Source of the DNA: a virus
Lineage: Duplodnaviria; Heunggongvirae; Uroviricota; Caudoviricetes
Direction: 5' to 3' (one strand)
Virus record (IMG/VR): IMGVR_UViG_3300038393_001148
DNA: 64,000 bases
The notes below the pieces were generated by a model. The model had not been told where the DNA came from and did not search any database. It worked only from the letters and a program-made list of their open reading frames with translations. Below are positions 19,008 through 33,276 of this stretch, piece after piece; position 1 is the stretch's first letter; every line of letters starts with the position of its first letter. Made by a program: the position numbers and the translations under genes.

Positions 19008-19081
19008 GCCCTGGTAGCTCAGTTGGATAGAGCAGCAGACTTCTAATCTGCCGGTCACTGGTTCGAGTCCAGTTCAGGGCG
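19008..19081 (+). tRNA. tRNA-Arg(TCT)
   Basis: Full cloverleaf, loop CTTCTAA. Confidence 0.92.
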
Positions 19082-19110
19082 TTGACGGGCGAATATTCTC
19101 GTGATATAGT
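19082..19110 (+). promoter_or_regulatory. SigA-like promoter
   Basis: TTGACG-N17-TATAGT. Confidence 0.75.
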
Positions 19111-19118
19111 CCGTCGAG

Positions 19119-19254
19119 ACATAGACAGTAGCCCAATGGGCCACTGGCGCAGCCGTCAATACGGCAGAAGGTGGCGTGGATCCAGGCATATATACCCTGG
19201 CTCTGCACGGCATCGAGTTGCTAAAGGGTCGCACCCGAGGCAGTGTGTCTATGT
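19119..19254 (+). ncRNA. Unclassified structured RNA A (136 nt)
   Basis: Closing stem ACATAGACA/TGTCTATGT, internal hairpins, own promoter. Confidence 0.6.
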
Positions 19255-19262
19255 AAGTCTTA

Positions 19263-19344
19263 GGCGGGATAGCGAAGCGGTCAAACGCAGCGGACTGTAA
19301 ATCCGTCCTCTCCGAGTTCGAAGGTTCGAATCCTTCTCCCGCCA
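19263..19344 (+). tRNA. tRNA-Tyr(GTA)
   Basis: Cloverleaf with long variable arm, loop CTGTAAA. Confidence 0.92.
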
Positions 19345-19348
19345 CTTT

Positions 19349-19608
19349 AAGCGAAGTCATACGGCGTGCCCCAAAGATGTTATTAGACGTGGCCCTATAC
19401 GGGCGAAGGACTGGGTGACTACCTTCACATTGAGTAAGGATACCCACGACCGAAAGGTAAGCGCTCTCGTCCCTGGCTCTCAACCAGGAGATTATCGGGA
19501 GTATTCAGTGGTGAAATTGGTATACACGCCAGCCCTATAAGCTGGTGCCTACGGGCGTACGGGTTCGAATCCCGTCTGAATGCAGCTAACGAACGTATGA
19601 CTTCGCTT
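19349..19608 (+). ncRNA. 260-nt structured RNA enclosing a tRNA-Leu-like body with a TAT anticodon (19501-19584)
   Basis: Perfect 15-bp closing stem AAGCGAAGTCATACG/CGTATGACTTCGCTT; embedded cloverleaf with loop CCTATAA. Confidence 0.65.
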
Positions 19609-19661
19609 TATCTTGCAAGAGGCTGGGAGCTTGCCTAGCGTGTTCACGGAAAAGCTCCAAT

Positions 19662-19747
19662 GCGGTTGTGGCGGAATGGTAGACGCGCTTGGTTGAGGGC
19701 CAAGTGGGATTTATAGTCCCGTGGAAGTTCGAATCTTCTCAACCGCA
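19662..19747 (+). tRNA. tRNA-Leu(GAG)
   Basis: Cloverleaf, long V arm, loop TTGAGGG. Confidence 0.92.
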
Positions 19748-19759
19748 CTTATAGTCTTA

Positions 19760-19834
19760 GGAAGTGGCGTGAACGCACGGGGAAGTAAGGGCGAGCAGTG
19801 GGCTCGTACCTGCTTTTACACAAAGAACGCTTCC
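19760..19834 (+). ncRNA. Small structured RNA candidate
   Basis: Ends GGAAG..GCGT/ACGCTTCC pair; nested hairpin GCGAGC/GCTCGT. Confidence 0.35.
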
Positions 19835-19839
19835 GCTCT

Positions 19840-19921
19840 GCGCCCTTGGTGGAATTGGCAGACACGTCAGGTTTAGGTCCTGATGCCGCGAGGTGTGAAG
19901 GTTCGAGTCCTTCAGGGCGTA
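19840..19921 (+). tRNA. tRNA-Leu(TAG)
   Basis: Cloverleaf, loop TTTAGGT. Confidence 0.92.
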
Positions 19922-19923
19922 CT

Positions 19924-20099
19924 AGGTCAAGGACGGTTAAATTCCGCCCAGCAGCATGCGCTGGGATAAGAAGTGACTACCTTAGTTCTCTACTGACAAC
20001 GTTTGCTACGTCTAGGAATATGCGTTAGGGCCAGAGGGTTAGGCAAGCCCGCCCGTTAACGTGAGAGCAGAGAAACAGAGCTTCCCATATACTTGACCT
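19924..20099 (+). ncRNA. Unclassified structured RNA C (176 nt)
   Basis: Closing stem AGGTCAAG/CTTGACCT begins 2 nt after tRNA-Leu; hairpin CCCAGC/GCTGGG. Confidence 0.5.
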
Positions 20100-20106
20100 T
20101 ACTCTT

Positions 20107-20225
20107 GTCGTCCTGCCCAATACATGGGCCGGTGTGAAGCGCGACCGATGTAGTGGACCTGCGCGTAGGTATACATGCGCGCATAACAATTCTTACTAGG
20201 TCAAACAGGGCGTGGCAGTGACGAC
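20107..20225 (+). ncRNA. Unclassified structured RNA D (119 nt)
   Basis: Closing stem GTCGTC-CTGCC/GGCAG-T-GACGAC; internal GCCC/GGGC and GCGCG hairpins. Confidence 0.45.
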
Positions 20226-20472
20226 TGTTGGAGGCAACTCTACGGATAAGGGTGTCCCGTTGTTTAGCGATGATATCTGACCGGACCGGGCCACATTGGC
20301 ATATATAACCAATGTGGCATCTTCTGCTGATTAGAATTCAGCCGGGAAAGTTGAACTAGAGCCTAACTCCGATACATATCCCCCGAGGGTGCAGTTGCGC
20401 GGTATCCCTTTCGGCCCACCTCTTCTGTGGAACCCCCGTGCCACATAAAACAAAGACCGGGAAAGATTTATT

Positions 20473-20548
20473 GGGCGAATGGTGTTAATGGCTAACATGG
20501 GAGTCTCCAAAACTCTTGCTCTAGGTTCGAATCCTAGTTCGCCCGCCA
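20473..20548 (+). tRNA. tRNA-Trp(CCA)
   Basis: Cloverleaf, loop CTCCAAA; the only tRNA here with an encoded 3' CCA. Confidence 0.92.
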
Positions 20549-20622
20549 CGGGGAGTGGCGCAGTCTGGTAGCGCGCTTGCTTTGGGAGCAAGATGTCGCA
20601 GGTTCGAATCCTGTCTCCCCGA
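20549..20622 (+). tRNA. tRNA-Pro(TGG)
   Basis: Cloverleaf, loop TTTGGGA. Confidence 0.93.
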
Positions 20623-20624
20623 CT

Positions 20625-21008
20625 ATGAGTAACGTAATCAAGTACAAGGGAAATGATCGAGTTAAGGTCATAGTCGATATCGACCGATATCAGCTAGACG
20701 GAACGCTAGATAGCGTAGTCGGCTATCTTGCGGGTCTAGGCGTAGGCCTTGAGGATCCTACCCTCGATCTCTCTGTACACGAGGGACCCTACTACGATCC
20801 TATCGTAGTTGAGTTTACGCTGACGGGTTATCGTGAGCCAACTGAGGAAGAACTTACGGCTCACGAGAAGAAGAAGGTTCGTGACGCCGAAGCAGCCAAG
20901 AAGCGAGCAGAGAAGGAGAAGGCGGAACGTGTTGTAAAGCGTCAGAAGGACGCTGAGAAGGCACTCAAACTCGCCAGGAAGGAATTTCCGGAGCTATTCA
21001 AGGAATAG
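20625..21008 (+). CDS. Hypothetical protein with a basic coiled-coil tail
   Basis: ATG 2 nt after tRNA-Pro; no SD. Confidence 0.7.
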   Translation: MSNVIKYKGNDRVKVIVDIDRYQLDGTLDSVVGYLAGLGVGLEDPTLDLSVHEGPYYDPIVVEFTLTGYREPTEEELTAHEKKKVRDAEAAKKRAEKEKAERVVKRQKDAEKALKLARKEFPELFKE

Positions 21009-21017
21009 CTCCATTTA

Positions 21018-21090
<73 letters not shown>

Positions 21091-21116
21091 CTTGACGTGT
21101 GCGCCTGTAAGTCAAT

Positions 21117-21240
21117 ACATACAGGCATTGTCTAAACGTTACTGTTGGGCGGGAACCCAACAGAGCGGTCCCAAGGATGTAATTCCCTTGGAAGCGTGTT
21201 ACGTGACAAGAGGCGCACCTTGGAGGCGGTGCCTGTATGT
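21117..21240 (+). ncRNA. Unclassified structured RNA E (124 nt), related to RNA A
   Basis: 11-bp closing stem ACATACAGGCA/TGCCTGTATGT; hairpins CTGTTGGG/CCCAACAG and CCAAGG/CCTTGG. Confidence 0.6.
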
Positions 21241-21251
21241 CTCGTTCCCGA

Positions 21252-21323
21252 GCCCGGATAGCTGAGTGGTGTTAGCACCTGCCTTACAAGCAGGAGACGT
21301 AGGTTCGATTCCTACTCTGGGCA
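21252..21323 (+). tRNA. tRNA-Val(TAC)
   Basis: Cloverleaf, loop CTTACAA. Confidence 0.9.
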
Positions 21324-21324
21324 T

Positions 21325-21516
21325 ATGGCAAAGAAAAAGCAGGGATACGGAACCAAGTGCGATAAGTGCGAGGCCAAGCTCGGCGATGTCGAGATGAAGC
21401 GGGGCAAGCCGGTGCTGATTGATGGGAAACCGGTCAAGATCCCGATCTTCTCGTATGCCCGCGAAATCGGCGGAAAGTGCGAGACTCGCTGCCTCAAGCA
21501 CTTGACATCCAAGTGA
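21325..21516 (+). CDS. Small basic Cys-rich protein
   Basis: ATG 1 nt after tRNA-Val; CDKC...CETRC. Confidence 0.65.
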   Translation: MAKKKQGYGTKCDKCEAKLGDVEMKRGKPVLIDGKPVKIPIFSYAREIGGKCETRCLKHLTSK

Positions 21517-21535
21517 GCCTTGCTAGGCTACGCAT

Positions 21536-21757
21536 ATGAGTCATCCCGTGTTCATCTCTATCGGCCCCAAGAAGGTTGATACGGAGATCATCAAGAAGGC
21601 GATTAGCCTGAAGGAGAAGGATCTAGGTCGCCATCTCACTTCGACCGAGATTCTTCAGACGATGGGCGAGGTCTACGAGCCGGATGCGTCAAAGCGCACC
21701 TTCATCTCCTCCCGACCGCCCTCAAAGATGCCCAAGCTACACCTGCCGAGGTCTTAG
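21536..21757 (+). CDS. Hypothetical protein
   Basis: 73 aa ORF. Confidence 0.55.
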   Translation: MSHPVFISIGPKKVDTEIIKKAISLKEKDLGRHLTSTEILQTMGEVYEPDASKRTFISSRPPSKMPKLHLPRS

Positions 21758-22007
21758 TATGTGGAAAACTGTTTGGAATGTCATTTCGCTGCTCGCGTTC
21801 GCGCTGAGGTGGTGCGCGGACACGCTGGGCGAGGCCCAGTACTGGGCCTGGGAAAAGGCGGGCAGCCCTGGTGCCCAGGAATCATAACTCACTCTTCCGG
21901 ACCTACATGAGCCATCAGAAACGGGAGGATCTGTACACGTACTACAGATCATGGGGTCATAGTCGCCTCTTCTCCTGGTGGATGTCTCGCAGGTACGGAC
22001 AAGATTA

Positions 22008-22080
22008 GGGCCACTAACTCAGTTGGTAGAGTATTCGCTCGACACGCGAAAAGTCACTGGTTCGAGTCCAGTGTGGCCCA
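22008..22080 (+). tRNA. tRNA-Val(GAC), atypical C33
   Basis: Cloverleaf, loop TCGACAC. Confidence 0.8.
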
Positions 22081-22083
22081 CTA

Positions 22084-22186
22084 GGGAAGTCTATCTACAA
22101 CCGGTTGAACATATTCCTCCACTGGAAATAGTTACCGTGGTACGCCGCGAGGCGGTCAGACTGGAATCTGGCAGGTAGAACTTCCC
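22084..22186 (+). ncRNA. Structured RNA candidate (103 nt)
   Basis: Closing stem GGGAAGT/ACTTCCC, 3 nt after tRNA-Val. Confidence 0.45.
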
Positions 22187-22195
22187 AACCTTGTC

Positions 22196-22380
22196 ACAAT
22201 CACCATAACAAGCCCCAAAGGCGAGATGCATACTTTGTAAGGCCACATTGTGAGAGGCTAATGCAGACAAAGTATGCATCTCTGATCTTTGTACGGTCAA
22301 CATTAGTTGCGACGCTTCTTTGGAGCAAAGTTGTGTGTGGTGAGTACGCATAAGCGGTCAGGCGGGAACCTGGCGATTGT
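22196..22380 (+). ncRNA. Structured RNA candidate (185 nt)
   Basis: Closing stem ACAATCACCA/TGGCGATTGT (9 of 10 pairs); internal perfect 16-bp helix 22223-22238/22267-22282. Confidence 0.5.
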
Positions 22381-22387
22381 AGTACAT

Positions 22388-22935
22388 GGGGAGGACAGGC
22401 ATCGATTCGGTTCGACAACCTATCCACCTAGTTGTAGCGGTATGAGCACACCTACAGGCTCAAAGCCATAACTGGCGCTGATACTCATCAGTTCGCTCTC
22501 GCTGCCTAACCGGTAGCGAAAAAGCCGGGCCGCTGGAAGCCTGGGAACAGAACACCAGCGAGGTTAGAATCCTCCTGTGATCCGCAGAAGATCTAAGGTC
22601 CTCGACGCTGCCGCACTGGCGGCAGCGTAGGTGACTGAGCGCTCATAACGCTCGATTCGAATGGATAGCGACCAAGGTTTGGTGCCGACGCCTACTTTTA
22701 CCGGAGGGCCATCCTTGCAAGCAGAATTCTTCCGGTGTAGCCGGGAGTGGGTTGCTGAGACCTTAGGTAAATAGAATTCAGACAGTGCTAAGCGGACTCG
22801 CGATGTAAAGGCCCTTCCAGAAGGGAACGACCACCTCTCCGGCACGCACAGATAGCGAATTAGCACAGCAGTACAAGCTACTAGAAGACTAGAGATAGTG
22901 AACTGAAGACGAGGGTTCGAATCCCTCCCTCTCCA
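22388..22935 (+). ncRNA. ssrA: tmRNA, 548 nt, with an inserted domain
   Basis: Acceptor GGGGAGG/CCTCTCC-A with G3.U70, TPsiC arm, pk1, tag frame 22474-22509 (GADTHQFALAA*) after ATAACT. Confidence 0.93.
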
Positions 22936-22937
22936 CT

Positions 22938-23043
22938 TGGGATAGATGACACCGACTCCACGGTAGATAAGGGAGCACGGCTCTATGGCCGGTCAGGCAT
23001 TAGGTGATGCCGCACCTTTCGCAAACCCCGCCTCACTATCCCA
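22938..23043 (+). ncRNA. Structured RNA candidate (106 nt)
   Basis: Closing stem TGGGATAG/CTATCCCA, 2 nt after tmRNA. Confidence 0.5.
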
Positions 23044-23051
23044 TTCACTTG

Positions 23052-23267
23052 GAAGGACGGCCTGCGACACATTCTGTGGTTGAATTCCACAAGCGAAGTG
23101 TCGATACCCAGACCCGGCTTGAAAACCGGGAGCAAAGGCGGAAGACCCAGTGACAGAGCACCAGGCCTGCAACCTGGAGGTCGCCGGTTAGAGTCCGGCC
23201 GAGGGCTGGCCCTCGTAGCTCAGTGGTCCGTGACTAGCTGACTTTTATGCCCGACGAACGTCCTTCA
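23052..23267 (+). ncRNA. Structured RNA containing a circularly permuted tRNA-like domain
   Basis: Closing stem GAAGGACG/CGTCCTTC; order is D-3' strand, anticodon arm, T arm, acceptor hairpin, D-5' strand. Confidence 0.65.
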
Positions 23268-23283
23268 AATTTTGCCGCAGGAT

Positions 23284-23358
23284 GCCCGAATAGCTTCAAC
23301 TGGATAGAGCGCTTCCCTCGTAAGGAAGAGGTTATGGGTTCGAGTCCCATTTCGGGCT
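23284..23358 (+). tRNA. tRNA-Thr(CGT)
   Basis: Cloverleaf, loop CTCGTAA. Confidence 0.9.
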
Positions 23359-23373
23359 TACGCCCTACTGCTG

Positions 23374-23446
23374 GGCCCCATAGCTCAACGGTCAGAGCGC
23401 TTGTCTTATACGCAAGTGGTTCTAGGTTCGAATCCTAGTGGGGCTA
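23374..23446 (+). tRNA. tRNA-Ile(TAT)
   Basis: Cloverleaf, loop CTTATAC, acceptor GGCCCCA resembling Ile2. Confidence 0.85.
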
Positions 23447-23453
23447 CCTACTT

Positions 23454-23526
23454 GCCCTTATAGTGAAGATGGATATCACGAGTCCCTCCTAAGGACTAGT
23501 CACGGGTTCGAGTCCTGTTGAGGGCG
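23454..23526 (+). tRNA. tRNA-Arg(CCT)
   Basis: Cloverleaf, loop CTCCTAA. Confidence 0.9.
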
Positions 23527-23534
23527 CTAAATCT

Positions 23535-23902
23535 TAACGCAGCACGAATGGAAGCTAAGTTCCTCTTAGCAGGTGCAGGACTGCGAAGCATCGGACCTTG
23601 GAATCGATGTGGAGTCACTGTTTCTCAAAGTCTGGTTAGAATCCGGCTGCTTTGAAGGGAAGGTGAGTAGGCTCAAATACTCTCACTTTCCCGAAGGTGA
23701 TCTGTGACCATTAAAAGGTGAGCGGAATCCCAGATCGCATGCAATCTGTCCGCAAAGGAGTAGGGAGAGGTGAATAAAGGCGCTAGTAGGGTCGGTTTAC
23801 CGACTGCCGAACGGTCTTTACGACCCTGTAGTACTCGACCGAAACCCGGAATCCGAGCTAGGGAATTTGCTACTCCCTTGACTGACTCGGCGCGCTGCGT
23901 TA
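23535..23902 (+). ncRNA. Large unclassified structured RNA (368 nt)
   Basis: Closing stem TAACGCAGC/GCTGCGTTA; several long helices; T-loop-like hairpin; no convincing ORF. Confidence 0.6.
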
Positions 23903-23912
23903 CTCTTGCAAT

Positions 23913-24341
23913 ATGCTGCTACGACGCATTCATCGCAATGCGCTCTCGTGGGTCAACGAAGAGCGGGCCTTGGCTGGACTGGACCCGATAGGCGACTTCC
24001 CAACGGGATTTCGCGGGGGTGATGCCAACCCCATCACGAACGCCTTGGGATCTCATGAGCGCGAGGTCGCCCCGAAGTTAGACGAGGCCATAAAGGAAGC
24101 GGAGGCGGACCCGCTCGGAGCGGCGTTAGAGGCTGCGGTTATTCCTAGCCCCATGTCGGCCTTCTTTTGGTTTGCGCTCTTTACGGTTGGGTTCTATCCC
24201 AAGTACGACCAGGCCAAGATGTATGAGAGGCTTCCGCCAAAGCGCCGTGCCCTTGTAGCAAGGAGGCTGCGGAACCTACCAAGCGATGCGCGAGAGCGGT
24301 ATTACCGCGTAGAGCAAGTGGTAAAAATGCTGAAGGAATAA
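23913..24341 (+). CDS. Hypothetical protein
   Basis: 142 aa ORF ending at the 5' end of tRNA-Ser. Confidence 0.65.
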   Translation: MLLRRIHRNALSWVNEERALAGLDPIGDFPTGFRGGDANPITNALGSHEREVAPKLDEAIKEAEADPLGAALEAAVIPSPMSAFFWFALFTVGFYPKYDQAKMYERLPPKRRALVARRLRNLPSDARERYYRVEQVVKMLKE

Positions 24342-24427
24342 GGAGAGGTGCCTGAGTGGTCGAAAGGGCTCGCCTGCTAAGCGAGTGTAGTTAATACCTA
24401 CCAGGGGTTCGAATCCCCTTCTCTCCG
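24342..24427 (+). tRNA. tRNA-Ser(GCT)
   Basis: Cloverleaf, long V arm, loop CTGCTAA. Confidence 0.92.
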
Positions 24428-24428
24428 C

Positions 24429-24457
24429 TTGACACCTGAAACGAAGTACGATAGGCT
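24429..24457 (+). promoter_or_regulatory. SigA-like promoter, near-leaderless
   Basis: TTGACA-N17-TAGGCT, ATG 6 nt later. Confidence 0.7.
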
Positions 24458-24463
24458 GAAGAT

Positions 24464-24925
24464 ATGAAGCTCGGAGAAGCACTAACATTACGAAGCGACC
24501 TAGTGTCGCGCTTGGGTGAGGTACGCAACCGTATCTCTTCCAACGTCCTGGTCCAGGACCAGGAGCGGCCAGCGGAGGACCCGAACGCCCTCATCGAGGA
24601 GCACGGAAACCTCTGCGATGAGCTTGAGAGCTTGGTCACCAAGATCAACCTCACCAACTCCCAGACGCGCCTTCCCTCCGGGGAGACGCTGACGGAGGCC
24701 CTCGTCAAGCGAGACGTGTTCGCCCAGCGTCTCAACGGCCTGCGGCAGGCGGCGCAAGCTGCCGATGTCACCCACGCCCGTCGCTACTCCCTCTCGGAGA
24801 TCAAGATGGTTCCGACCATCAAGGTTGCCGATCTCAATGAGGAGATCGATGGCTTGGCGAAGCAGCGCCGTCAGCTTGACACGGCGATCCAGGCCCATAA
24901 CTGGACCACGGATCTAGTAGAGTAA
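24464..24925 (+). CDS. DIP1984 family protein
   Basis: MKLGEALTLRSDL...VQDQERPAEDP...TLTEALVKRD...RYSLSEIK...IQAHNWTTDL matches the family pattern as I recall it. Confidence 0.8.
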   Translation: MKLGEALTLRSDLVSRLGEVRNRISSNVLVQDQERPAEDPNALIEEHGNLCDELESLVTKINLTNSQTRLPSGETLTEALVKRDVFAQRLNGLRQAAQAADVTHARRYSLSEIKMVPTIKVADLNEEIDGLAKQRRQLDTAIQAHNWTTDLVE

Positions 24926-25158
24926 GTTAGTTGGTAGTCGTAAAGTAGCGAATGTCAGGGCTGACTATGCGCCTTAAGCTAGTCCCATCGGAGACCCGAA
25001 ATCTCGCCTCCCCGCTGCGCGAAGGGAATAAGTTACCGTTCCGCGCCAACCGGGTACAGATGATCGTCACCGTTCATAAGTTACTACCAGACATTGAACT
25101 TTGCGATGAGGGATGGCATTACCCTGTAGGTAATGCCGGGTTCGGGGACTTAACTTAC
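24922..25158 (+). ncRNA. Structured RNA overlapping the DIP1984 stop codon (237 nt)
   Basis: Closing stem GTAAGTTA/TAACTTAC; TGGTAGT/ACTACCA; AATGTC/GACATT; 9-bp hairpin GGCATTACC/GGTAATGCC. Confidence 0.55.
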
Positions 25159-25163
25159 AACGA

Positions 25164-25237
25164 CGCGGGATAGTGGAAGCATGGCGCCACGCTAGCCTCA
25201 TAAGCTAGAGATCTGGGTTCGAATCCCGGTCCCGCTA
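25164..25237 (+). tRNA. tRNA-Met(CAT), initiator-like acceptor
   Basis: Cloverleaf, loop CTCATAA, C1:U72 mismatch, no 3GC anticodon stem. Confidence 0.85.
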
Positions 25238-25238
25238 C

Positions 25239-25311
25239 GCCTTCTTAACTCAATTGGCAGAGTAACTGACTCTTAATCAGGAGGTTCTGGGTTCGAGTCC
25301 CAGAGAAGGCA
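25239..25311 (+). tRNA. tRNA-Lys(CTT)
   Basis: Cloverleaf, loop CTCTTAA. Confidence 0.9.
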
Positions 25312-25313
25312 CT

Positions 25314-25485
25314 TAGACGGTACGAAAGAGTTGCCCGTTACAAAACGGCTGGAAACAACGGGACATCCAACCTCAGAGCGGTTAGAATCCGCCATTCTAG
25401 GGCTTAGCGGCCCTACGTGCCTTAGCGGGCATAAGAATAAGGGAAATCGAGAGGTGCGAGCCGAAACACCCTCGCGCACCGTCTA
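25314..25485 (+). ncRNA. Structured RNA candidate (172 nt)
   Basis: Closing stem TAGACGGT/ACCGTCTA, 2 nt after tRNA-Lys; GCGG-TTAGAAT-CCGC and TAGGGC/GCCCTA hairpins. Confidence 0.55.
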
Positions 25486-25549
25486 TCTATAATAACTTCG
25501 GAGCCGAGATCGAAGCGGCCAACTCTGACCCGGAGTCTAAATGGGTAAT

Positions 25550-25623
25550 GGGTGATTAGCTCAGTTGGTGAGAGCGCTCGTCTGATAAGCGAGAGGTCCC
25601 TGGTTCAAGTCCAGGATTGCCCA
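25550..25623 (+). tRNA. tRNA-Ile(GAT)
   Basis: Cloverleaf, loop CTGATAA. Confidence 0.93.
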
Positions 25624-25625
25624 CT

Positions 25626-25720
25626 AGAGGACCGGTCGATGGATAAGTTCGAACTATTCCATCCCTCAGACACAAGCGGCCATGCTGTTGTCTGCGTATG
25701 AACTGGCGACCGCATCCTCT
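25626..25720 (+). ncRNA. Structured RNA candidate (95 nt)
   Basis: AGAGGA-CGGTCG/CGACCG-TCCTCT closing helix, 2 nt after tRNA-Ile; two internal hairpins. Confidence 0.5.
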
Positions 25721-25728
25721 TAATCTAC

Positions 25729-25901
25729 TGATCCCATGGGTCAGCCTGTTCTCGCCAGGGAAATTGCCTACAACTGTGTGGCGATATGTTTGTAGGAAGC
25801 CGCCCTCCCACGCCAGGGGCCAGAATAGCGGCAGCGAGAAACTTAACTCACCAAGCCCAACCTCTATTGGTAAGAATAGAGTAGTATCCCTTACCGGATC
25901 A
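25729..25901 (+). ncRNA. Structured RNA candidate (173 nt)
   Basis: TGATCC/GGATCA ends; TTCTCGC/GCGAGAA internal helix. Confidence 0.4.
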
Positions 25902-25966
25902 ATGCGAAAATCCTCCATGTTGGCATGGTCGCGGGAGCAAGGATTGGAATCCGAGGCTCCCACCAA

Positions 25967-26038
25967 TGGTGGGTGCTCGATAGGCAAGAGAACGGACTGT
26001 TAATCCGCTGCATGTGGGTTCGAATCCCACCCCACCAG
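25967..26038 (+). tRNA. tRNA-Asn(GTT)
   Basis: Cloverleaf with short D stem, loop CTGTTAA. Confidence 0.8.
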
Positions 26039-26046
26039 CTAATGGT

Positions 26047-26124
26047 TTCACAGTTGTCAGCACAGGTTGACTCCCTGTCAGGAGAAATTTGGCCCTCCGT
26101 CTGACTCAAAGACCTGACTGTGAA
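26047..26124 (+). ncRNA. Small structured RNA candidate (78 nt)
   Basis: TTCACAGT/ACTGTGAA closing stem. Confidence 0.35.
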
Positions 26125-26194
26125 CTTATCTCATAGATATTCGGTAATCTGACAAGGAGGTAGTGGTTAAGTTCGAACTGTAGCGAAGTAACTT

Positions 26195-26266
26195 GGCGGG
26201 GTGGCGGAATGGCTTACGCACGGGTCTGCAAAACCTGTTATACGGGTTCGATTCCCGTCCTCGCCT
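26195..26266 (+). tRNA. tRNA-Cys(GCA)
   Basis: Cloverleaf, loop CTGCAAA, U73. Confidence 0.9.
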
Positions 26267-26268
26267 CT

Positions 26269-26460
26269 ATGCAGTTGCTTACTATCGAAGAATTTCATGC
26301 ACTACCCGAAGGTACCGAGCTAATCTCAATTCTTGATGAGGTCAAGATCAAGGGCAGGGATTATATCGATCTTGACACCCGCGCCGGGTTGATAGCTTGG
26401 TATGTTCGAAAGCTACCTGAGCCTACGCTTGCGGACAGTGAATGGATCGATAATAGTTGA
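26269..26460 (+). CDS. Hypothetical protein (63 aa)
   Basis: ATG 2 nt after tRNA-Cys. Confidence 0.6.
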   Translation: MQLLTIEEFHALPEGTELISILDEVKIKGRDYIDLDTRAGLIAWYVRKLPEPTLADSEWIDNS

Positions 26461-26463
26461 CTT

Positions 26464-26550
26464 GGAGGGTTGGCAGAGTCCGGTTTAATGCAACGGTCTT
26501 GAAAACCGTCAGGTGTCACAGCCTCCTGGGTTCGAATCCCAGACCCTCCG
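26464..26550 (+). tRNA. tRNA-Ser(TGA)
   Basis: Cloverleaf, long V arm, loop CTTGAAA. Confidence 0.92.
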
Positions 26551-26553
26551 CTT

Positions 26554-26674
26554 GGGGCGAATGGTAAGGTAGCCCGTCAATTCGTGGCGTCCGGTGTCGT
26601 TCGAGCCGACGTTAAACATATGGATGCAAATAGGGTAGTTCCCGCCTACTTGGGTTCGAATCCCAAGCGCCCCA
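26554..26674 (+). ncRNA. tRNA-like RNA with an expanded anticodon arm (121 nt)
   Basis: GGGGCG/CGCCCC-A acceptor, TTGGG-TTCGAAT-CCCAA T arm, GCGTCC/GGATGC stem with a 29-nt loop. Confidence 0.55.
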
Positions 26675-26707
26675 TCTGCGGAGTCAAGGTTCCGTACCTT
26701 AATATGT

Positions 26708-27253
26708 ATGAACCTCCGCTGGGCCGCTTTCCTTGATGCGCTAGAAATTATCGTTCGGTACAGTTCGGTTCTCCTTGCTGTAGGATTATTGACCTGGGCC
26801 GTTTCTTCTATCACGGTTAACAAGAAGACACAAGAGATAAATCGCATTGTTCGCACTATCCAGGAAGCCAAGCGTGGACCTCGGGGTGAACGTGGTCCGT
26901 CTGGACCTCAAGGATTGCGAGGCCGCGAAGGTGCGGTTGGACCGAGAGGCGTTCAGGGTCGGACGGGCGCTAGCGGCCCTAGAGGACAGAGGGGTCCACA
27001 GGGCGCACAGGGCCAGCGAGGTGCCGAAGGGCTTCGGGGACCCCAGGGTGTACAGGGCGCTACAGGAAAAACTGGAGCAACTGGTCCCGAAGGCCCTCGC
27101 GGTGAGCGAGGCCCAACTGGCGCTCAAGGAGCTACGGGGCTACGCGGCCCTCAAGGAATCCCTGGAGTCCAGGGCCCGTTGGGACCTGAAGGGCCGATTG
27201 GCCCACGAGGACCAATCGGTTCGGTCACTTGTCAGGTTTTACAAAGCTGCTGA
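26708..27253 (+). CDS. Membrane-anchored collagen-like protein
   Basis: N-terminal TM helix followed by about 38 Gly-X-Y triplets. Confidence 0.85.
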   Translation: MNLRWAAFLDALEIIVRYSSVLLAVGLLTWAVSSITVNKKTQEINRIVRTIQEAKRGPRGERGPSGPQGLRGREGAVGPRGVQGRTGASGPRGQRGPQGAQGQRGAEGLRGPQGVQGATGKTGATGPEGPRGERGPTGAQGATGLRGPQGIPGVQGPLGPEGPIGPRGPIGSVTCQVLQSC

Positions 27254-27303
27254 AGGCGGTGTAGTAAAGCTGGAGTTAAGTGGATGGATTATCCAACGCT
27301 GAG

Positions 27304-27376
27304 GGCAACTTAGCTCAGTTGGTAGAGCGGCAGACTGAAAATTTGCGCGTCACTGGTTCGAGTCCAGTAGTTGCCA
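27304..27376 (+). tRNA. tRNA-Phe(GAA)
   Basis: Cloverleaf, loop CTGAAAA. Confidence 0.92.
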
Positions 27377-27389
27377 TCGACTTACACAT

Positions 27390-27462
27390 GCCGGGTTGGT
27401 CTAGCGGTTAGGACGCCTGTCTTTCACACAGGAAATCACGGGTTCGAACCCCGTACCCGGTA
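27390..27462 (+). tRNA. tRNA-Glu(TTC)
   Basis: Cloverleaf, loop CTTTCAC. Confidence 0.92.
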
Positions 27463-27564
27463 CTTACTCCCAACAGTGAAAGTCGCCTTGCCCGGCTTGT
27501 CCTAGGAAAGCTCCGGGCGAACAAGAAGTAGCAAAGCCCTGATTGTGGGCAGTTTCCGATCTAC

Positions 27565-27649
27565 GCCGAAGTGACGGAACCGGTAGACGTAGCGGACTCA
27601 AAATCCGCCGCCCCATAAAGGCGTGAGGGTTCGAGTCCCTCCTTCGGCA
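27565..27649 (+). tRNA. tRNA-Leu(CAA)
   Basis: Cloverleaf, loop CTCAAAA. Confidence 0.92.
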
Positions 27650-27664
27650 TTGAGTAGAACCCAC

Positions 27665-27736
27665 TGCGGAGTGGTGTAATTGGCAACACATGGGTTTCTG
27701 GTACCTAGATTCGGGGTTCAAGTCCCTGCTCCGCAT
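27665..27736 (+). tRNA. tRNA-Gln(CTG)
   Basis: Cloverleaf, loop TTCTGGT. Confidence 0.88.
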
Positions 27737-27745
27737 TATTGATTT

Positions 27746-27829
27746 GGCGGCGTGCTGGAATTGGAGATACAGGGCAAGCTTAAACCTTGCTGCCTTCGGG
27801 GATTGTGGGTTCGAGTCCCACCGCCGCTA
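27746..27829 (+). tRNA. tRNA-Leu(TAA)
   Basis: Cloverleaf, loop CTTAAAC. Confidence 0.9.
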
Positions 27830-27891
27830 CTGTGAGATACGGGGTGAGCCCGCCTGCGCGATGAGCGTAAAGAGGAGGAAGATATTGTGTG

Positions 27892-27964
27892 GGTCCGGTA
27901 GCTCAGGGGAAGAGCGCCAGCCGTTATAAGCTGGAAGTCGTTGGTTCGAATCCAACCTGGATCA
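27892..27964 (+). tRNA. tRNA with an 8-nt anticodon loop (CGTTATAA; Ile(TAT)-like)
   Basis: Acceptor GGTCCGG/CTGGATC, D arm, CCAGC/GCTGG stem, canonical T arm. Confidence 0.7.
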
Positions 27965-28022
27965 CGGTCTACTCGACCTTAAGGAGTGGCACATCATCCG
28001 AATCCCATGAACGTATCTTGTC

Positions 28023-28051
28023 TTGACTGTCCGTAGATGGACTGGTATCAT
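28023..28051 (+). promoter_or_regulatory. SigA-like promoter
   Basis: TTGACT-N17-TATCAT, ATG 6 nt later. Confidence 0.7.
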
Positions 28052-28057
28052 GGATCT

Positions 28058-28207
28058 ATGACTCAATATTACGTAGGAGCGGTTATCGGGGCCATCCTAG
28101 CCGTCATCGGTTACCTCGGCCCCGAGGATGGAGGGACGCTAGAGCTTATTGGCCTTGCGATTCTCGCTGTTGCCCTCTATAAGCTTTTCGACCTGAACTG
28201 GTTCTGA
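28058..28207 (+). CDS. Small two-TM membrane protein (49 aa)
   Basis: Manual translation MTQYYVGAVIGAILAVIGYLGPEDGGTLELIGLAILAVALYKLFDLNWF. Confidence 0.65.
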   Translation: MTQYYVGAVIGAILAVIGYLGPEDGGTLELIGLAILAVALYKLFDLNWF

Positions 28208-28208
28208 G

Positions 28209-28601
28209 ATGGCCTTCAAGTTCTGCAACACAGAAACCCTGATCCGGCTCAATAACGAGTGCATCGATAATCCTCACTGCAATCGAGCTATTGATGAGAA
28301 GGCCTATGAGTTGCTTGACCCTGAGGGCACGCACCTTTTTGACTCGTCGCACATCGTCTTCCGGATGGCCGGTCATGGATTCGTCCGCCCGATGGTCAGC
28401 ATGAAGATGAAGGACACTATGGAGCCGGTGCAGGTCACCATGGATCTCTCCGATGAACAGTGGAATTCCCTTCGTACGTTCACGAAGGAGATGGACGATA
28501 TGTTGAAGTCGGGCAAGGAATGTGTGGACTGTGGATACGTCCGCCCGCACCAACCCGGCGACTACATTTGTCTGATCTGTAGGACCAGCGGTAAGAAGTA
28601 A
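28209..28601 (+). CDS. Protein with C-terminal DYxC Zn-ribbon tag (member 1)
   Basis: CVDC-x9-DYICLICR. Confidence 0.75.
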   Translation: MAFKFCNTETLIRLNNECIDNPHCNRAIDEKAYELLDPEGTHLFDSSHIVFRMAGHGFVRPMVSMKMKDTMEPVQVTMDLSDEQWNSLRTFTKEMDDMLKSGKECVDCGYVRPHQPGDYICLICRTSGKK

Positions 28602-28606
28602 ATAGT

Positions 28607-28680
28607 GTGGGGATAGCATAATTGGTTAATGCCCTTGGTTGTGGACCAAGACAATGTGGGTTCGAGTCCCACTCCTCACC
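28607..28680 (+). tRNA. tRNA-His(GTG)
   Basis: Cloverleaf, loop TTGTGGA, C73; T rather than G at -1. Confidence 0.9.
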
Positions 28681-28686
28681 CCTCAA

Positions 28687-28759
28687 GCCTCCGTAACTCA
28701 ATTGGCAGAGTGGCTGACTTTTAATCAGAACGTTGCAGGTTCGAGTCCTGCCGGGGGCA
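28687..28759 (+). tRNA. tRNA-Lys(TTT)
   Basis: Cloverleaf, loop CTTTTAA. Confidence 0.92.
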
Positions 28760-28761
28760 CT

Positions 28762-29109
28762 ATGTTCCAGGTTGGTGATGTACTCAAATATGCCAAATCT
28801 GAACTTGACCCTCCGATGATTTGCCAGCACGGAGAATACGTTGGCACAGTGCTGGCTATCGAGGAGGGTGGCCGGATGCGTGTTATGTGGCACTGGGATC
28901 CCGTAGAATATTGTCGCATCCATGGTTCCTCGATCTCTCGGATCCAAGAAACTTGGAAAGGGCAGTCGGGGGTTAGGGGTTATTGTGCCTCGGTTTCGGC
29001 CTTCTTTTATTTCTCCAATGATTGCGCAGTATGCGGCAGGACGATTGGGCACGTTTTGGATTACATCTGTAGTGAATGTCGTAACATGGCCGATTCGTCC
29101 AGTGGTTAG
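28762..29109 (+). CDS. Zn-ribbon tag protein (member 2)
   Basis: ATG 2 nt after tRNA-Lys; CAVC-x8-DYICSECR; stop codon lies inside tRNA-Glu. Confidence 0.7.
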   Translation: MFQVGDVLKYAKSELDPPMICQHGEYVGTVLAIEEGGRMRVMWHWDPVEYCRIHGSSISRIQETWKGQSGVRGYCASVSAFFYFSNDCAVCGRTIGHVLDYICSECRNMADSSSG

Positions 29110-29159
29110 GACGCCAGCCTCTCACGTTGGAAACACGGGTTCGAATCCCGTATCGGCTA
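29088..29159 (+). tRNA. tRNA-Glu(CTC)
   Basis: Cloverleaf, loop CTCTCAC. Confidence 0.92.
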
Positions 29160-29197
29160 CTCTTGATCCATTCTCCCGCGTTTGGTAGTATCTTCTC

Positions 29198-29533
29198 ATG
29201 AGAGTCCGCGCTGTATACACCCTCAAGTCCTTTGCCGAACTAAAGGATGCTCTTGAGTACGCCAAGAGCATCAAGGCGGGAGCGGGAAGCCATGCGGACG
29301 CTGAGCTAGAGATTGAGTTCGATAAGAAATCAAAGAAGCTCGGATCCCTCGGCGGCAAAGGACTCACAGCGATCTTGCCCACCTCACCTCCAGAGGAAGA
29401 GGAGTCAGCGCTTCCCTGGAAGGTGGTCGTGGTCAACGAGGATCCGGTGCCCGGAGGAAGTCCCTGCGCCGAGTGTGACCAGCCCCATTTCGAGGAAGAC
29501 TTCCTCTGCTCTGATTGTCGAGCCGCCGCATGA
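29198..29533 (+). CDS. Zn-ribbon tag protein (member 3)
   Basis: CAEC-x7-DFLCSDCR. Confidence 0.75.
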   Translation: MRVRAVYTLKSFAELKDALEYAKSIKAGAGSHADAELEIEFDKKSKKLGSLGGKGLTAILPTSPPEEEESALPWKVVVVNEDPVPGGSPCAECDQPHFEEDFLCSDCRAAA

Positions 29534-29820
29534 TCTTCTACAAGACCCGTACGGTGCAAAAGGGTAAAGAGCTTCACGACATCGAAGCTGTGAAGAAACG
29601 TTTGAAGGAAATTCACGACCATCCTAAGTCGGCTTATCACAAGGCGCTCAAGGAAAATCGTATTATGGTGTGCTACGACCAGAATCGCGCCACGCGGGGC
29701 AAATATGACATCATCGAATTCACCGAGGTCGAGCCTCCGGGCTCCTCGGTTTGCGGAGGTTGTCAGAAGAGGTTCTTTAGCCTAGAAGAAGACTATCTAT
29801 GTCCGAAGTGCCGCTCCTGA
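29530..29820 (+). CDS. Zn-ribbon tag protein (member 4)
   Basis: CGGC-x9-DYLCPKCR; ATGA overlap with member 3. Confidence 0.75.
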   Translation: MIFYKTRTVQKGKELHDIEAVKKRLKEIHDHPKSAYHKALKENRIMVCYDQNRATRGKYDIIEFTEVEPPGSSVCGGCQKRFFSLEEDYLCPKCRS

Positions 29821-30071
29821 ATCCAGAACTCCTGCGCCCCGGATTGGTTATGAAGGATTCTCGATGGACTGATTGGTACACCGTTGCCGAAGTCCATGGG
29901 CGCGAATTCATCTTTGATGGCTATCCCAATGCAGTGTATGATTTCTTTAGTCCGATAAGCGGTGGTACTTGGGTTATTCCTAACGCTAGTTGGTGTGCAT
30001 CTTGCGAAGAACCCGCACTAATAAATGACTACCTATGCCATCATTGTAGAAAGGAGGAGAATAATGGCTAG
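29799..30071 (+). CDS. Zn-ribbon tag protein (member 5)
   Basis: CASC-x7-DYLCHHCR. Confidence 0.7.
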   Translation: MSEVPLLNPELLRPGLVMKDSRWTDWYTVAEVHGREFIFDGYPNAVYDFFSPISGGTWVIPNASWCASCEEPALINDYLCHHCRKEENNG

Positions 30072-30711
30072 CCGCGCCCGTAGCGTCTCAATTAACGACC
30101 AGACTTTGTGGTTCGACATGAAGCTGGCTCATCTCAAGGCCACCGACAAGCAGATAGAGCTTTTGGCGACTATCGAAGATCTTGAGATGGATGATCTGCT
30201 AGAGTCGAACGTGACGCAGGGCGACGTGCTCAAGCGCCTCCGCGAGGCATTAGGCCAGGCTCCAATCCCTCCAGATGTTCTGCTCAAGAGGCAGAAGTGG
30301 AGACGGGAACGTCAGACGCAGCCGCCCTGCCGTCTCTGCCACAAGATTGGCGACAGTACACGTCACCACTTCGTGAATAAGTGGATTCTGAAGGAATTGT
30401 CAGGATACGGGCGCGAGTGGTCTAACAGACAAGAGAACTGTATTCCACTGTGTATTGATTGCCACCGGGATCTGCACGATAGAAGCGGCCCGTCGAAATC
30501 AATTGCGCATGTCCTCACGGCGCGCGAGAAGGATTTCGCCAATCGCGCTATCGAACGGCTCTCGGAAGAGCGTCCTAAGCTTCTTATCCTCATTGCCAAG
30601 GGTTCCGATACGGTATATGAGGCTCGACTGATCAAAGACTGGTTCGAAGGTCTGTTCGAGGTGGAAGCTGCTGAACTCGCTGAGGATGAGCCTCTCGCGG
30701 CGGTTGCGTAA
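30064..30711 (+). CDS. HNH-like endonuclease domain protein
   Basis: CRLC...RHH...NCIPLCIDCHRDLH. Confidence 0.7.
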   Translation: MASRARSVSINDQTLWFDMKLAHLKATDKQIELLATIEDLEMDDLLESNVTQGDVLKRLREALGQAPIPPDVLLKRQKWRRERQTQPPCRLCHKIGDSTRHHFVNKWILKELSGYGREWSNRQENCIPLCIDCHRDLHDRSGPSKSIAHVLTAREKDFANRAIERLSEERPKLLILIAKGSDTVYEARLIKDWFEGLFEVEAAELAEDEPLAAVA

Positions 30712-30725
30712 AGGCCGCCACACTT

Positions 30726-30798
30726 GCGCCTGTAGCTCAGTGGATAGAGCGCATCCCTGCGGAGGATGAGGTCACTGGTTCAAATCCAGTCAGGCGCG
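30726..30798 (+). tRNA. tRNA-Arg(GCG)
   Basis: Cloverleaf, loop CTGCGGA. Confidence 0.88.
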
Positions 30799-30800
30799 CT

Positions 30801-31103
30801 ATGGCCGAATGTGCTAATTGTGAAATGCGGCAGGCCCCGGAGGAAGATTTCCTCTGCCAATCCTGTCGGGACTGGGAGAACGGGGAGATCAGCTTGGAGA
30901 GTATCTTCGTCGCCGAGTCTCATGATAAATTTGCTCCACCAGAGGCCGCCATGGAGATGGCGAGATGCGATAACGTCGTTTACTTCACGATGTGCAAGTA
31001 CGAGGAAGGTACTTTCCACCGCAAGGCTGATGTCAAGGCTACGTTCTCCATGGACATCAAGACGTTGCTCAAGGCCCTTCGAGCATTGGATGTGGTAGAG
31101 TAA
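30801..31103 (+). CDS. Zn-ribbon tag protein (member 6, N-terminal tag)
   Basis: ATG 2 nt after tRNA-Arg; CANC-x8-DFLCQSCR. Confidence 0.75.
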   Translation: MAECANCEMRQAPEEDFLCQSCRDWENGEISLESIFVAESHDKFAPPEAAMEMARCDNVVYFTMCKYEEGTFHRKADVKATFSMDIKTLLKALRALDVVE

Positions 31104-31107
31104 ACTC

Positions 31108-31302
31108 ATGGCTCCTAAGAAGAAAGCGGCCTTCGTGCCGCAAGAAAAAGATGATGGCACTCGTTGGCGCGTCATGCGCTACACTGAGAAGGGTGTCACT
31201 GAGGTCTACCCGGCACGGTCGGGCCTCATGAAGCGCGAGGCTCAGCGACTAGCCGAAGGATTGGCGCTAGGGGGAGCCTTCATCGAGCAGGTCGAAGAAT
31301 AA
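31108..31302 (+). CDS. Hypothetical protein
   Basis: 64 aa ORF. Confidence 0.6.
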   Translation: MAPKKKAAFVPQEKDDGTRWRVMRYTEKGVTEVYPARSGLMKREAQRLAEGLALGGAFIEQVEE

Positions 31303-31304
31303 CT

Positions 31305-31378
31305 GCCCTTGTCGCCTAACGGATATGGCACTTGACTTCGGATCAAGAATAATGCGGGTTCGAATCCTGCCGGGGGCG
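31305..31378 (+). tRNA. tRNA-Arg(TCG)
   Basis: Cloverleaf, loop CTTCGGA. Confidence 0.88.
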
Positions 31379-31386
31379 CTCGTCTA

Positions 31387-32469
31387 ATGGACAACAATAT
31401 GCTGATCACACAACAGGAGCACAACGCCTACTCCTATCCGGCTCAGAGGTTTAATGAGACGGTAGAAGAGCTAAACCTCCCGCATCAGAGATACGCTCAG
31501 TGGAGCACTGATGCAGAAAACGCCGATCTTCAGGTGTATGTGGAGAGAGGCTTTTCGAGTCGTTACAACGACGACAATAGTCTCTACGTTGCCTTTACGG
31601 AGAGCGATAGCAAGGCTGCGGGTTGGATCCAGCTTCAAAGCGGTTTGGTATACGTCACCGTTGCGGCGCAAACGGCTGAGCGAGCGGAGTCCCTGCTAGC
31701 GGACATTGAGAATGTCATTCCTCGCTCCGAGGAGACGGACACGGAGTCCGAGGTTTCCATCGGCTTTTGGTCGCTCGGTCCGCAAGGTCCGAGCCGCATG
31801 AACCGGCGTATTGCGGTCCCAGTTTGGGACGAGATCAAGAATAATTACACCAAGGATGTCAAGGAGTCGCTTGAGTCCTTGATGGAGATTAAGAGCGGCA
31901 AGGATCTTGGCGACGGTCAGCTTATTCTCTGGCAGGGAGAGCCCGGCACGGGCAAGACCTATGCCCTGAGATCGCTAGCCTCGGCATGGCACAAGTGGTG
32001 TGAGTTTCATTACATCACCGATCCAGAGCAGTTCTTTGGAAGTCATTCCAACTACATGTTGAATGTCATCCTCCACGACAGCAACCCATATGGGGTGGAG
32101 GAGGAGCCAAGGTGGAAACTCCTCATTCTGGAGGATTCCGGCGAGCTATTGCGCGCCGATGCCAAGCAGGTCGTCGGTCAGGCGCTTTCTCGCTTGCTCA
32201 ACACGGTTGATGGTCTGATCGGTCAGGGCCTCCGTCTCTTGGTTCTCGTCACCACTAACGAGGAGATGGAAAAGCTCCATCCCGCTGTGTCCCGTCATGG
32301 GCGCTGCCTCCAGCAGGCAGAGTTTGGCCCCTTGACAAGGGACGAGGTTCGCGCTTGGATGGACGAGAATGACATCGAAGGCGATGTCGTCCCGATGTCG
32401 GCAGCTAACCTCTACGCCTTGAAGAACGGCAAGAAGGCTGAGGAAAAGCGCCTCGTAGGCTTCCACTAG
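31387..32469 (+). CDS. AAA+ ATPase (DUF5925-like N-terminus)
   Basis: GEPGTGKT, LILED, RLLNTVDGLIGQG, TTNE and PAVSRHGRC motifs. Confidence 0.85.
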   Translation: MDNNMLITQQEHNAYSYPAQRFNETVEELNLPHQRYAQWSTDAENADLQVYVERGFSSRYNDDNSLYVAFTESDSKAAGWIQLQSGLVYVTVAAQTAERAESLLADIENVIPRSEETDTESEVSIGFWSLGPQGPSRMNRRIAVPVWDEIKNNYTKDVKESLESLMEIKSGKDLGDGQLILWQGEPGTGKTYALRSLASAWHKWCEFHYITDPEQFFGSHSNYMLNVILHDSNPYGVEEEPRWKLLILEDSGELLRADAKQVVGQALSRLLNTVDGLIGQGLRLLVLVTTNEEMEKLHPAVSRHGRCLQQAEFGPLTRDEVRAWMDENDIEGDVVPMSAANLYALKNGKKAEEKRLVGFH

Positions 32470-32475
32470 CAGTTT

Positions 32476-32549
32476 GCGGCTGTAGCTCAGTTGGCTAGAG
32501 CGTCTCCTTGCCATGGAGAAGGTCGAGGGTTCGAATCCCTTCAGCCGCT
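32476..32549 (+). tRNA. tRNA-Gly(GCC)
   Basis: Cloverleaf, loop TTGCCAT. Confidence 0.93.
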
Positions 32550-33260: not shown

Positions 33261-33276
33261 CTGACACGTAAGTGTC

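Follow-up and report, generated by a model that had tools for sequence, protein, structure and literature searches.

The DIP1984/DUF6847-family gene of a large tailed phage from soil is followed by a structured RNA, and the two together most likely specify an undescribed protein–RNA particle, as judged from sequence comparison. The window, that is, the whole stretch of 64,000 nt that was analysed and to which all positions refer, is part of this phage. The reading that we prefer, with a probability of about 0.62, is that the RNA is a released scaffold with sealed ends, on which dimers of the protein would load at one heptad per subunit to give a particle of defined size. A first-pass annotation had proposed that the gene belongs to a conserved protein-plus-RNA module carried into the tRNA island, and the comparison upheld this proposal: a covarying RNA lies behind nearly all homologs of the gene, gene and RNA co-occur perfectly in the genomes sampled, and further pairs lie in the tRNA regions of other phages. 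The features of the locus are listed in Table 1.

Table 1. Features of the DUF6847 locus and its flanks in the window
Feature	Position	Strand	Basis or remark
tRNA-Ser	directly 5′ of the promoter at 24429	+	
Putative promoter: −35 TTGACA (24429–24434), 17-nt spacer, −10 TAGGCT (24452–24457)	24429–24457	+	sequence form; function presumed
DUF6847/DIP1984-family gene, 153 aa, probably leaderless	24464–24925	+	profiles, fold
Structured RNA, 237 nt, uncatalogued family	24922–25158	+	covariance model
P1; stop codon inside	24922–24931 with 25148–25158	+	duplex energies
GG-UA tract, 5′ side of the P1/P3 junction	24933–24936	+	conserved, 94–97%
P3	24937–24946 with 25098–25107	+	covariation
Internal motif: G24948, C24949–G25096, bulged G24950	24948–24950	+	conserved
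P4	24951–24956 with 25090–25095	+	covariation
H-type pseudoknot (24957–24984), P5	24957–24959 with 24972–24974	+	covaries; register slides
H-type pseudoknot (24957–24984), P6	24963–24967 with 24980–24984	+	covaries
Extra hairpin, 4 bp, 7-nt loop	24991–25005	+	mapped on the window
Hairpin P7; loop GCGC 25017–25020 pairs with GCGC 25043–25046 in the array	25009–25027	+	
Heptad array, ending in invariant ACC (25086–25088)	25028–25088	+	chain statistics
3′ G-tracts: GA-GGG (GGG 25110–25112), GGG 25138–25140, 3-nt loop, GGGG 25144–25147	25108–25147	+	
Inserted 9-bp hairpin between G-tracts	25115–25137	+	
tRNA-Met, starting 5 nt past P1	25164–25238	+	

Phage setting, promoter and protein

In the window, the DNA polymerase, DnaB-like helicase, ribonucleotide reductase, terminase and portal proteins match PHROGs, and 39 tRNA genes, all on the + strand, are spread from 19008 to 36144. 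Gene and RNA also stand beside tRNA genes in three further phage loci (L088, L093 and L097), and the DUF6847 protein of the window is found on metagenome contigs of up to 165 kb as well. A search of 148 homolog loci for a recurring neighbour gene revealed none beyond close relatives. Two other observations concern the surroundings of the gene. A 142-aa ORF (23913–24341) directly upstream of the tRNA-Ser gene matched neither Pfam nor NCBIfam, and several small ORFs between 28209 and 30071 have a C-terminal CxxC...DYLCxxC motif in common.

The gene had been described as having its own promoter and almost no leader, and both points were supported. Sites of the form TTGACA-N16-18-TANNNT occur eight times in the window, all on the + strand, as compared with 0.9 expected from shuffled sequences, and the site ahead of the gene (TTGACA-17-TAGGCT) is followed by the ATG 6 nt past its −10 element. 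Because of this short distance the DUF6847 message is probably leaderless, and TTGACA/TAGGCT is a putative phage-type promoter of the gene. A sigma-70 scan made no call at this site because it requires at least 4/6 matches in the −10 element. The eight sites lie at 17817, 21502, 24429, 38299, 59632, 59992, 60352 and 63258; those at 21502 and 24429 share TAGGCT with an ATG within 6 nt, and those at 59632, 59992 and 60352 are spaced by exactly 360 nt.

The identity of the gene as DIP1984, suggested earlier, was confirmed by two profiles, PF20935 (DUF6847; 160.7 bits against a cut-off of 27, E 2.7e-47) and NF038048 (DIP1984; 167.6 bits against a cut-off of 70, E 1.9e-49). The predicted fold is a long four-helix hairpin like that of PDB 3KDQ (TM 0.93, rmsd 1.5 Å), for which a second fold search gave Z 16.0 and an rmsd of 1.3 over 150 residues. 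This entry alone stood out in the fold searches, and there was no toxin, nuclease or TRAP-like fold among the matches; the likeness to PspA, ESCRT-III and CdvA (Z 7.5–8.1) is within the range of generic helices and was set aside. A helical hairpin of this kind is generic, no known RNA-binding protein was among its matches, and an Atlas search with the protein returned unnamed clusters only. With 2093 clusters at 50% identity (E under 1e-10), the family is large, and a quick tree placed the window protein, with weak support, among Solirubrobacter-like Actinomycetota. The literature that we searched describes neither a function nor an RNA partner for DIP1984, DUF6847 or 3KDQ.

The residues that are near-invariant among 147 sequences include R10, R23, N65, R83, R107, E112, D129, R136, Q143, N146 and W147. 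When four copies of the protein were predicted together, the self-association score was 0.73, as compared with 0.00 for the best control, the runs agreed in at least 87% of contacts and the partner pLDDT was at least 84. Of solved pairs, 20 of 30 reach the mark for self-association, as does 1 of 23 single chains; since 3KDQ is a solved four-chain crystal, the high score may reflect the predictor's memory of that entry. The confident predicted contacts form an antiparallel dimer that leaves the start of helix 1 and helix 4 free, and the conserved residues R10, R136, Q143, N146 and W147 lie outside these contacts. Short phage homologs of about 105 aa (L098, L101, L103, L105 and L108) retain mainly the first and last helices. 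Because the dimer leaves the start of helix 1 and helix 4 free and the short phage relatives keep them, the model points to these elements as the likely RNA-binding face.

The RNA family and its linkage to the gene

Genomes, metagenomes and viral contigs supplied about 190 homolog loci for comparison, 149 of them non-redundant. The 3′ G-rich motif of the RNA was present in 112 of the 149 downstream regions, whereas 2 of 136 upstream regions have it and shuffled sequences gave 5.2. A covariance model, R1, built from 40 rows with the window left out, matched the window at 24919–25132 (34.7 bits, E 2.3e-9), the only full-length strong match there, and matched 98 of 100 further loci, at most 40 of which were training rows; the two misses are short contigs. 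In an alignment of 117 RNAs (94 effective, mean identity 51%), the top covarying columns belong to P3 and P4 of the stalk, to the pseudoknot P5/P6 and to the pair between loop and array, and the stalk is 93–99% paired. In the 40-row alignment, each of the 10 pairs in the P3/P4 helix shows changes on both sides, 94% of the cells pair as compared with 32–47% in slid controls, and double changes number 185 against 58 after shuffling, counts that are inflated by kinship among the sequences. These results show that the regions downstream of the homologs share sequence and structure, and every helix of the family could be placed on the window RNA. The folding energy of the 237 nt, taken as a single sequence against shuffles, was not significant (z −1.1), so the structure of the window RNA rests on the comparison.

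The 5′ and 3′ strands of P1 form duplexes with a median of −11.8 kcal/mol when cognate and −5.9 kcal/mol when ends are swapped; 44 of 106 duplexes are beyond the 5% control mark, and the register of the stem is variable. The loop of P7 and its partner in the array vary together: GGGC is matched by GCCC in 62 of 67 cases, GAGC by GCUC in 20 of 23 and GGAC by GUCC in 4 of 6. The pairing site lies 43–45 nt from ACC in 84 of 109 RNAs, and the GCGC/GCGC variant of the window stands at the expected distance, 43 nt. The possibility of a pseudoknot between the 5′ GGU and the array-ending ACC was also considered, the two being 100% complementary and invariant in the 40-row alignment. It is disfavoured because about ten variants have changes on one side only, ACC or CC is kept where GGU is gone, and the length of the stalk between them varies by about 10 nt.

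The repeated words that drew attention to this RNA are all where they had been placed: TAAGTTA at 24923, 25029 and 25077, TAACTTA at 25151, ACCGTTC at 25035 and 25069, GTAGCGAA at 24945 and GGGTTCGG at 25138; when the 237 nt were shuffled 3000 times, a 7-mer reached three copies in 20 of the shuffled sequences. Their interpretation as alternative pairings did not hold, because most of them are units of the heptad array: two copies of TAAGTTA and both copies of ACCGTTC fall within it, and only the copy at 24923 pairs with TAACTTA at 25151. Likewise, GTAGCGAA and GGGTTCGG, which had been put forward as family markers, occur in 3 and 5 of the 149 non-redundant loci. The actual motifs of the family are GGUAR, GCG before the stalk helix P4, ACC and GAGGG-Y-GGG-NNN-GGGG.

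No covariance model of Rfam 15 matched the window RNA at the gathering score, and 19 homolog loci searched at a relaxed E-value gave no match. A weak candidate, Ms_IGR-2 (RF02467), was rejected at 14.9 bits (E 1.7) in the window where more than 45 bits are needed. We ascribe this likeness to chance, because five true matches of that family have no DUF6847 gene within 1.5 kb and two weak ones (L193 and L194) adjoin what look like the ends of IS110 transposase genes. The latter observation suggests that Ms_IGR-2, a mycobacterial sRNA family, derives from IS110 ends.

The repeats adjoin the gene for a coiled-coil dimer and occur on plasmids and phages, as would a DNA-level element, either operator repeats or a single-strand origin, to which the protein binds. 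However, the strand-specific pseudoknots, the T-loops and the G-U pairs (18/40 at the stalk base) point to RNA, and a 7-base spacing fits no DNA helical period, which leaves a DNA element barely credible. A T-loop word is present in 94 of the 149 loci and is loosely tied to an upstream YGG (odds 4, p 0.005, with kinship ignored). Together with the location in the tRNA clusters of four phages, this would agree with a tRNA-mimic or Y-RNA-like decoy directed at host enzymes and chaperoned by the protein. We hold such a decoy to be very improbable: the T-arm is optional and is missing from its usual place in the window, from most Deinococcus copies and from Acinetobacter, and the RNA lacks both an acceptor stem and CCA, matches neither YrlA nor tRNA and has no Ro60 neighbour.

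In two unbiased genome samples, the gene and the RNA were found in the same genomes, and adjacent, in 5 of 151 Actinomycetes (5/5) and in 14 of 151 Chloroflexota (14/14), with Fisher p values, the centre genome left out, of 5e-8 and 5e-19, respectively. Because the search scored the best 14 RNA candidates per genome, weak RNA-only copies could have escaped it. The pair occurs in bacteria, archaea, plasmids and phages. In the window, the stop codon (24923–24925) lies inside the 5′ strand of P1, whose closing pairs join 24922–24929 with 25151–25158, as the first-pass annotation had stated, but this overlap is not a defining feature of the family, since elsewhere the RNA starts 4 to more than 200 nt from the stop, usually within 30 nt, and whole ORFs intervene in L094 and L145.

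The phage locus L094 has two diverged RNA copies (3984–4192 and 4785–4997), 0.5 and 1.3 kb from the gene, which flank an endonuclease VII/HNH-like gene; other ORFs stand between the DUF6847 gene and each of the two copies. In L145 (1940–2600), an RNA-ligase-like frame with a KxDGxN motif, apparently broken, lies between gene and RNA. Two RNA copies stand in tandem in L164. The third RNA copy of a Chloroflexota genome (L245; G393:C13:111286-111554) has no DUF6847 gene directly upstream and follows a stretch of imperfect repeats about 330 nt long. In three Bacilli loci (L285, L286 and L287), the gene is broken by a stop or a frameshift while the RNA looks intact. The extra copies that stand apart from the gene (L094, L164 and G393) indicate, at the level of sequence, that the RNA acts in trans. 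Because it is distant, separated, duplicated or without the gene elsewhere, the RNA probably works as a released molecule, and the stop-codon overlap is a local feature.

The usual start within 30 nt of the stop codon and the overlap in the window would also fit feedback in cis: attached to the heptads of the message that encodes it, the protein would govern the decay of this message or its termination. TRAP and HutP act in this way in 5′ leaders, in which evenly spaced short units are typical. This reading appears decidedly improbable in view of the RNA copies that are separated by ORFs, duplicated or orphan. In addition, there is no conserved downstream gene, the RNA has far more tertiary structure than such control needs, and the job of the protein would be left unexplained.

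The distribution extends to 371 plasmid records. The gene is on 342 Acinetobacter plasmid records, and in Acinetobacter it sits two genes from a BrnT/BrnA pair. On A. baumannii p2AB5075 (L261:3501-4180, ABUW_RS19620), a gene often labelled ‘septicolysin’ belongs to the DUF6847 family, and its RNA, which retains the stalk and heptads without the G-tracts, was missed by model R1. The fold searches gave no cytolysin match behind the ‘septicolysin’ label on plasmid copies. The gene is present in 57 of 101 Deinococcus genomes; the copy on chromosome I of D. radiodurans R1 (L294:2372-3050, about 2,001,870–2,002,550) is three genes from thioredoxin reductase and has a reduced RNA without G-tracts. 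The patchy, mobile distribution and the proximity to BrnT/BrnA would be consistent with a type III-like toxin-antitoxin or abortive-infection system, in which the free protein is harmful and unstable RNA repeats neutralise several copies of it; no protein without RNA was seen in the surveyed genomes, the RNA is sometimes in excess copies, and its repeats and pseudoknots recall what is generally known of ToxI. Nevertheless, we consider such a system unlikely. No nuclease or other enzyme fold was among the matches of the protein, and the RNA is downstream of the gene, is not made of tandem identical pseudoknots and looks end-protected rather than unstable. Furthermore, the carrier is a lytic phage and the putative promoter is strong and the gene's own.

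Heptad array and G-tracts

From its sequence, the array is a single-stranded, constrained row of about eight N5-A-Y units. The AY positions in the window are 25028, 25035, 25049, 25056, 25063, 25069, 25076 and 25083, which form a chain of 8 as compared with 3.7 in shuffles (p ~0.001). Family-wide, the AY–AY distances peak at 7, 14 and 21 nt (244, 190 and 127, against 120, 94 and 67 when shuffled). The heptads are degenerate and their spacing varies from 6 to 8 nt; an interpretation of the array as a reading frame was rejected, as units of these lengths break the frame. Distant chromosomal Bacilli homologs of about 170 aa (L288–L293) have shorter, unrelated-looking scaffolds that retain clear AC units of 7–8 nt, in chains of 5–9 with a spacing of 6–8 nt. 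The array is the most durable part of the RNA, since these distant RNAs keep AC chains inside different scaffolds. The same AC-chain test was not passed in 4 of the 5 loci with short phage homologs, and these loci (L098, L101, L103, L105 and L108) have longer RNAs with recurring CCGA words about 8, 15–16 or 30 nt apart.

The 5′ GG and the 3′ GGG, GGG and GGGG are 93–100% conserved, also at loci with 34–45% G+C, and of the two loops between the 3′ tracts, one is 1 nt long in 117 of 123 RNAs and the other is 3 nt long in 113 of them. No covarying partner for the G-tracts was found among the alignment columns. In the majority the pattern is 2+3+3+4 G, and in 7 of 7 Lactobacillales loci it is 3+3+2+3, permuted around P3, with GGG-Y-GGG, which occurs once per locus, before the stalk and GG and then GGG after it. 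This arrangement is kept across proteins that are about 60% identical, and it counts as one evolutionary event because the seven loci are related. The 5′ GGUA is absent wherever the 3′ tracts are absent, namely in the Deinococcus clade, in Acinetobacter p2AB5075 with L024 and L089, in L096 and in L179, and these members keep the core of the RNA. The 1-nt loop accepts insertions, a 9-bp hairpin in the window and 9 nt in L097.

These observations suggest that the four G-tracts probably form an RNA G-quadruplex at the base of the stalk: four conserved tracts with short loops and no Watson-Crick partners are found together, and helices move between the loops while the tracts stay, which a fixed Watson-Crick pairing would not tolerate. 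Energy folding of the window RNA with quadruplexes allowed selected none. Natural G-quadruplexes are generally considered rare in bacterial RNA. A likeness of the 3′ G-rich word to the T-box was rejected: a T-box has, in a 5′ leader, an invariant UGGN bulge for pairing with the NCCA of a tRNA, whereas the look-alike position is U in 56, C in 54 and A in 7 cases, and the element is 3′ of the gene and has no RF00230 match.

Proposed particle and comparison with known systems

In the scaffold reading that we prefer, both partners would come from one transcript, whose coding part yields the small helical protein and whose tail yields the stable RNA to be coated by it. The 3′ end of the RNA may come from maturation of the tRNA-Met, since this tRNA starts 5 nt after P1; RNase P, by its established action, would cut ahead of it. 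The 5′ end may be left by decay or by cleavage past the stop codon. Both ends would be sealed by P1 and by a G-quadruplex of the four tracts (2+3+3+3/4 G), in place of which lineages without the quadruplex would use a long stalk and a terminator. In the protein dimers, the conserved first and last helices (R10, R136, D139, Q143, N146 and W147) would then make contact with the RNA, each subunit taking up one heptad, and the array would thereby fix a small oligomer of about eight subunits, with the RNA holding the protein in a defined, stored particle. Since the pair is mobile, patchy in its occurrence and placed in the tRNA clusters of phages, the particle may have an accessory job, in stress or in phage–host conflict, at the level of RNA or translation.

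A more elaborate form of the scaffold is conceivable, a new class of RNA-templated protein oligomer whose subunit count would follow from how many 7-base units there are. Its quadruplex would have one short column of two Gs, a vacancy that a guanine nucleotide such as GTP, ppGpp or a cyclic dinucleotide could fill. We regard such a nucleotide-gated store as quite unlikely; if true, the gated particle would release or rearrange the protein under stress or phage infection.

The family is large and has a solved structure, and its members on clinical plasmids are widely annotated, wrongly, as toxins. Because the cognate RNA is always present, the protein should be studied with it, and work on the protein alone has missed half of the system. 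No catalogued RNA family combines a ruler-like heptad array that is held by loop pairing with a candidate quadruplex. Deinococcus radiodurans R1, Paenibacillus and Picosynechococcus are tractable carriers.

By profiles and fold, the window protein is a member of the DIP1984/DUF6847 family of 3KDQ. The putative particle resembles, as far as is generally known of these systems, TRAP with the trp leader, HutP with the hut leader and CsrA with CsrB, in that an oligomer would read evenly spaced single-stranded units. However, TRAP, HutP and CsrA are beta-rich or alpha/beta proteins, absent from the profile and fold matches of the window protein and probably unrelated to it. Their RNAs have as units either 3-nt words, in 5′ leaders, or GGA hairpins, whereas the DUF6847 RNA has a 7-nt period within a knotted scaffold that lies downstream of the DUF6847 gene itself. 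Ro60/Rsr and its Y RNAs (YrlA, RF02553) are similar in pairing a protein gene with a cognate RNA, in a partial likeness to tRNA and in their occurrence in phage tRNA regions. The 148 DUF6847 loci differ in having no recurring TROVE neighbour, their RNA has no YrlA match and only an optional T-arm, and Y RNAs lack the heptad array and the G-tracts.

Type III toxin-antitoxin systems (ToxIN, CptIN and TenpIN) and the AbiF/DUF3800 pairs, as generally known, are likewise mobile modules of two parts, a protein and an RNA with repeats and pseudoknots. The DUF6847 RNA is one ornate unit rather than a set of tandem identical antitoxins. No ToxN, CptN or TenpN endoribonuclease profile or fold was among the matches of the window protein, from which only 3KDQ stands out, and there is no type III antitoxin array upstream of the gene, where the tRNA-Ser and the promoter lie; the RNA is single and downstream. 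Finally, the G-tracts, the short loops and the junction between helices recall general features of the Mango, Spinach and sc1 aptamers. Those aptamers were selected in vitro, whereas the DUF6847 RNA, with its candidate quadruplex, is natural and spans phyla.
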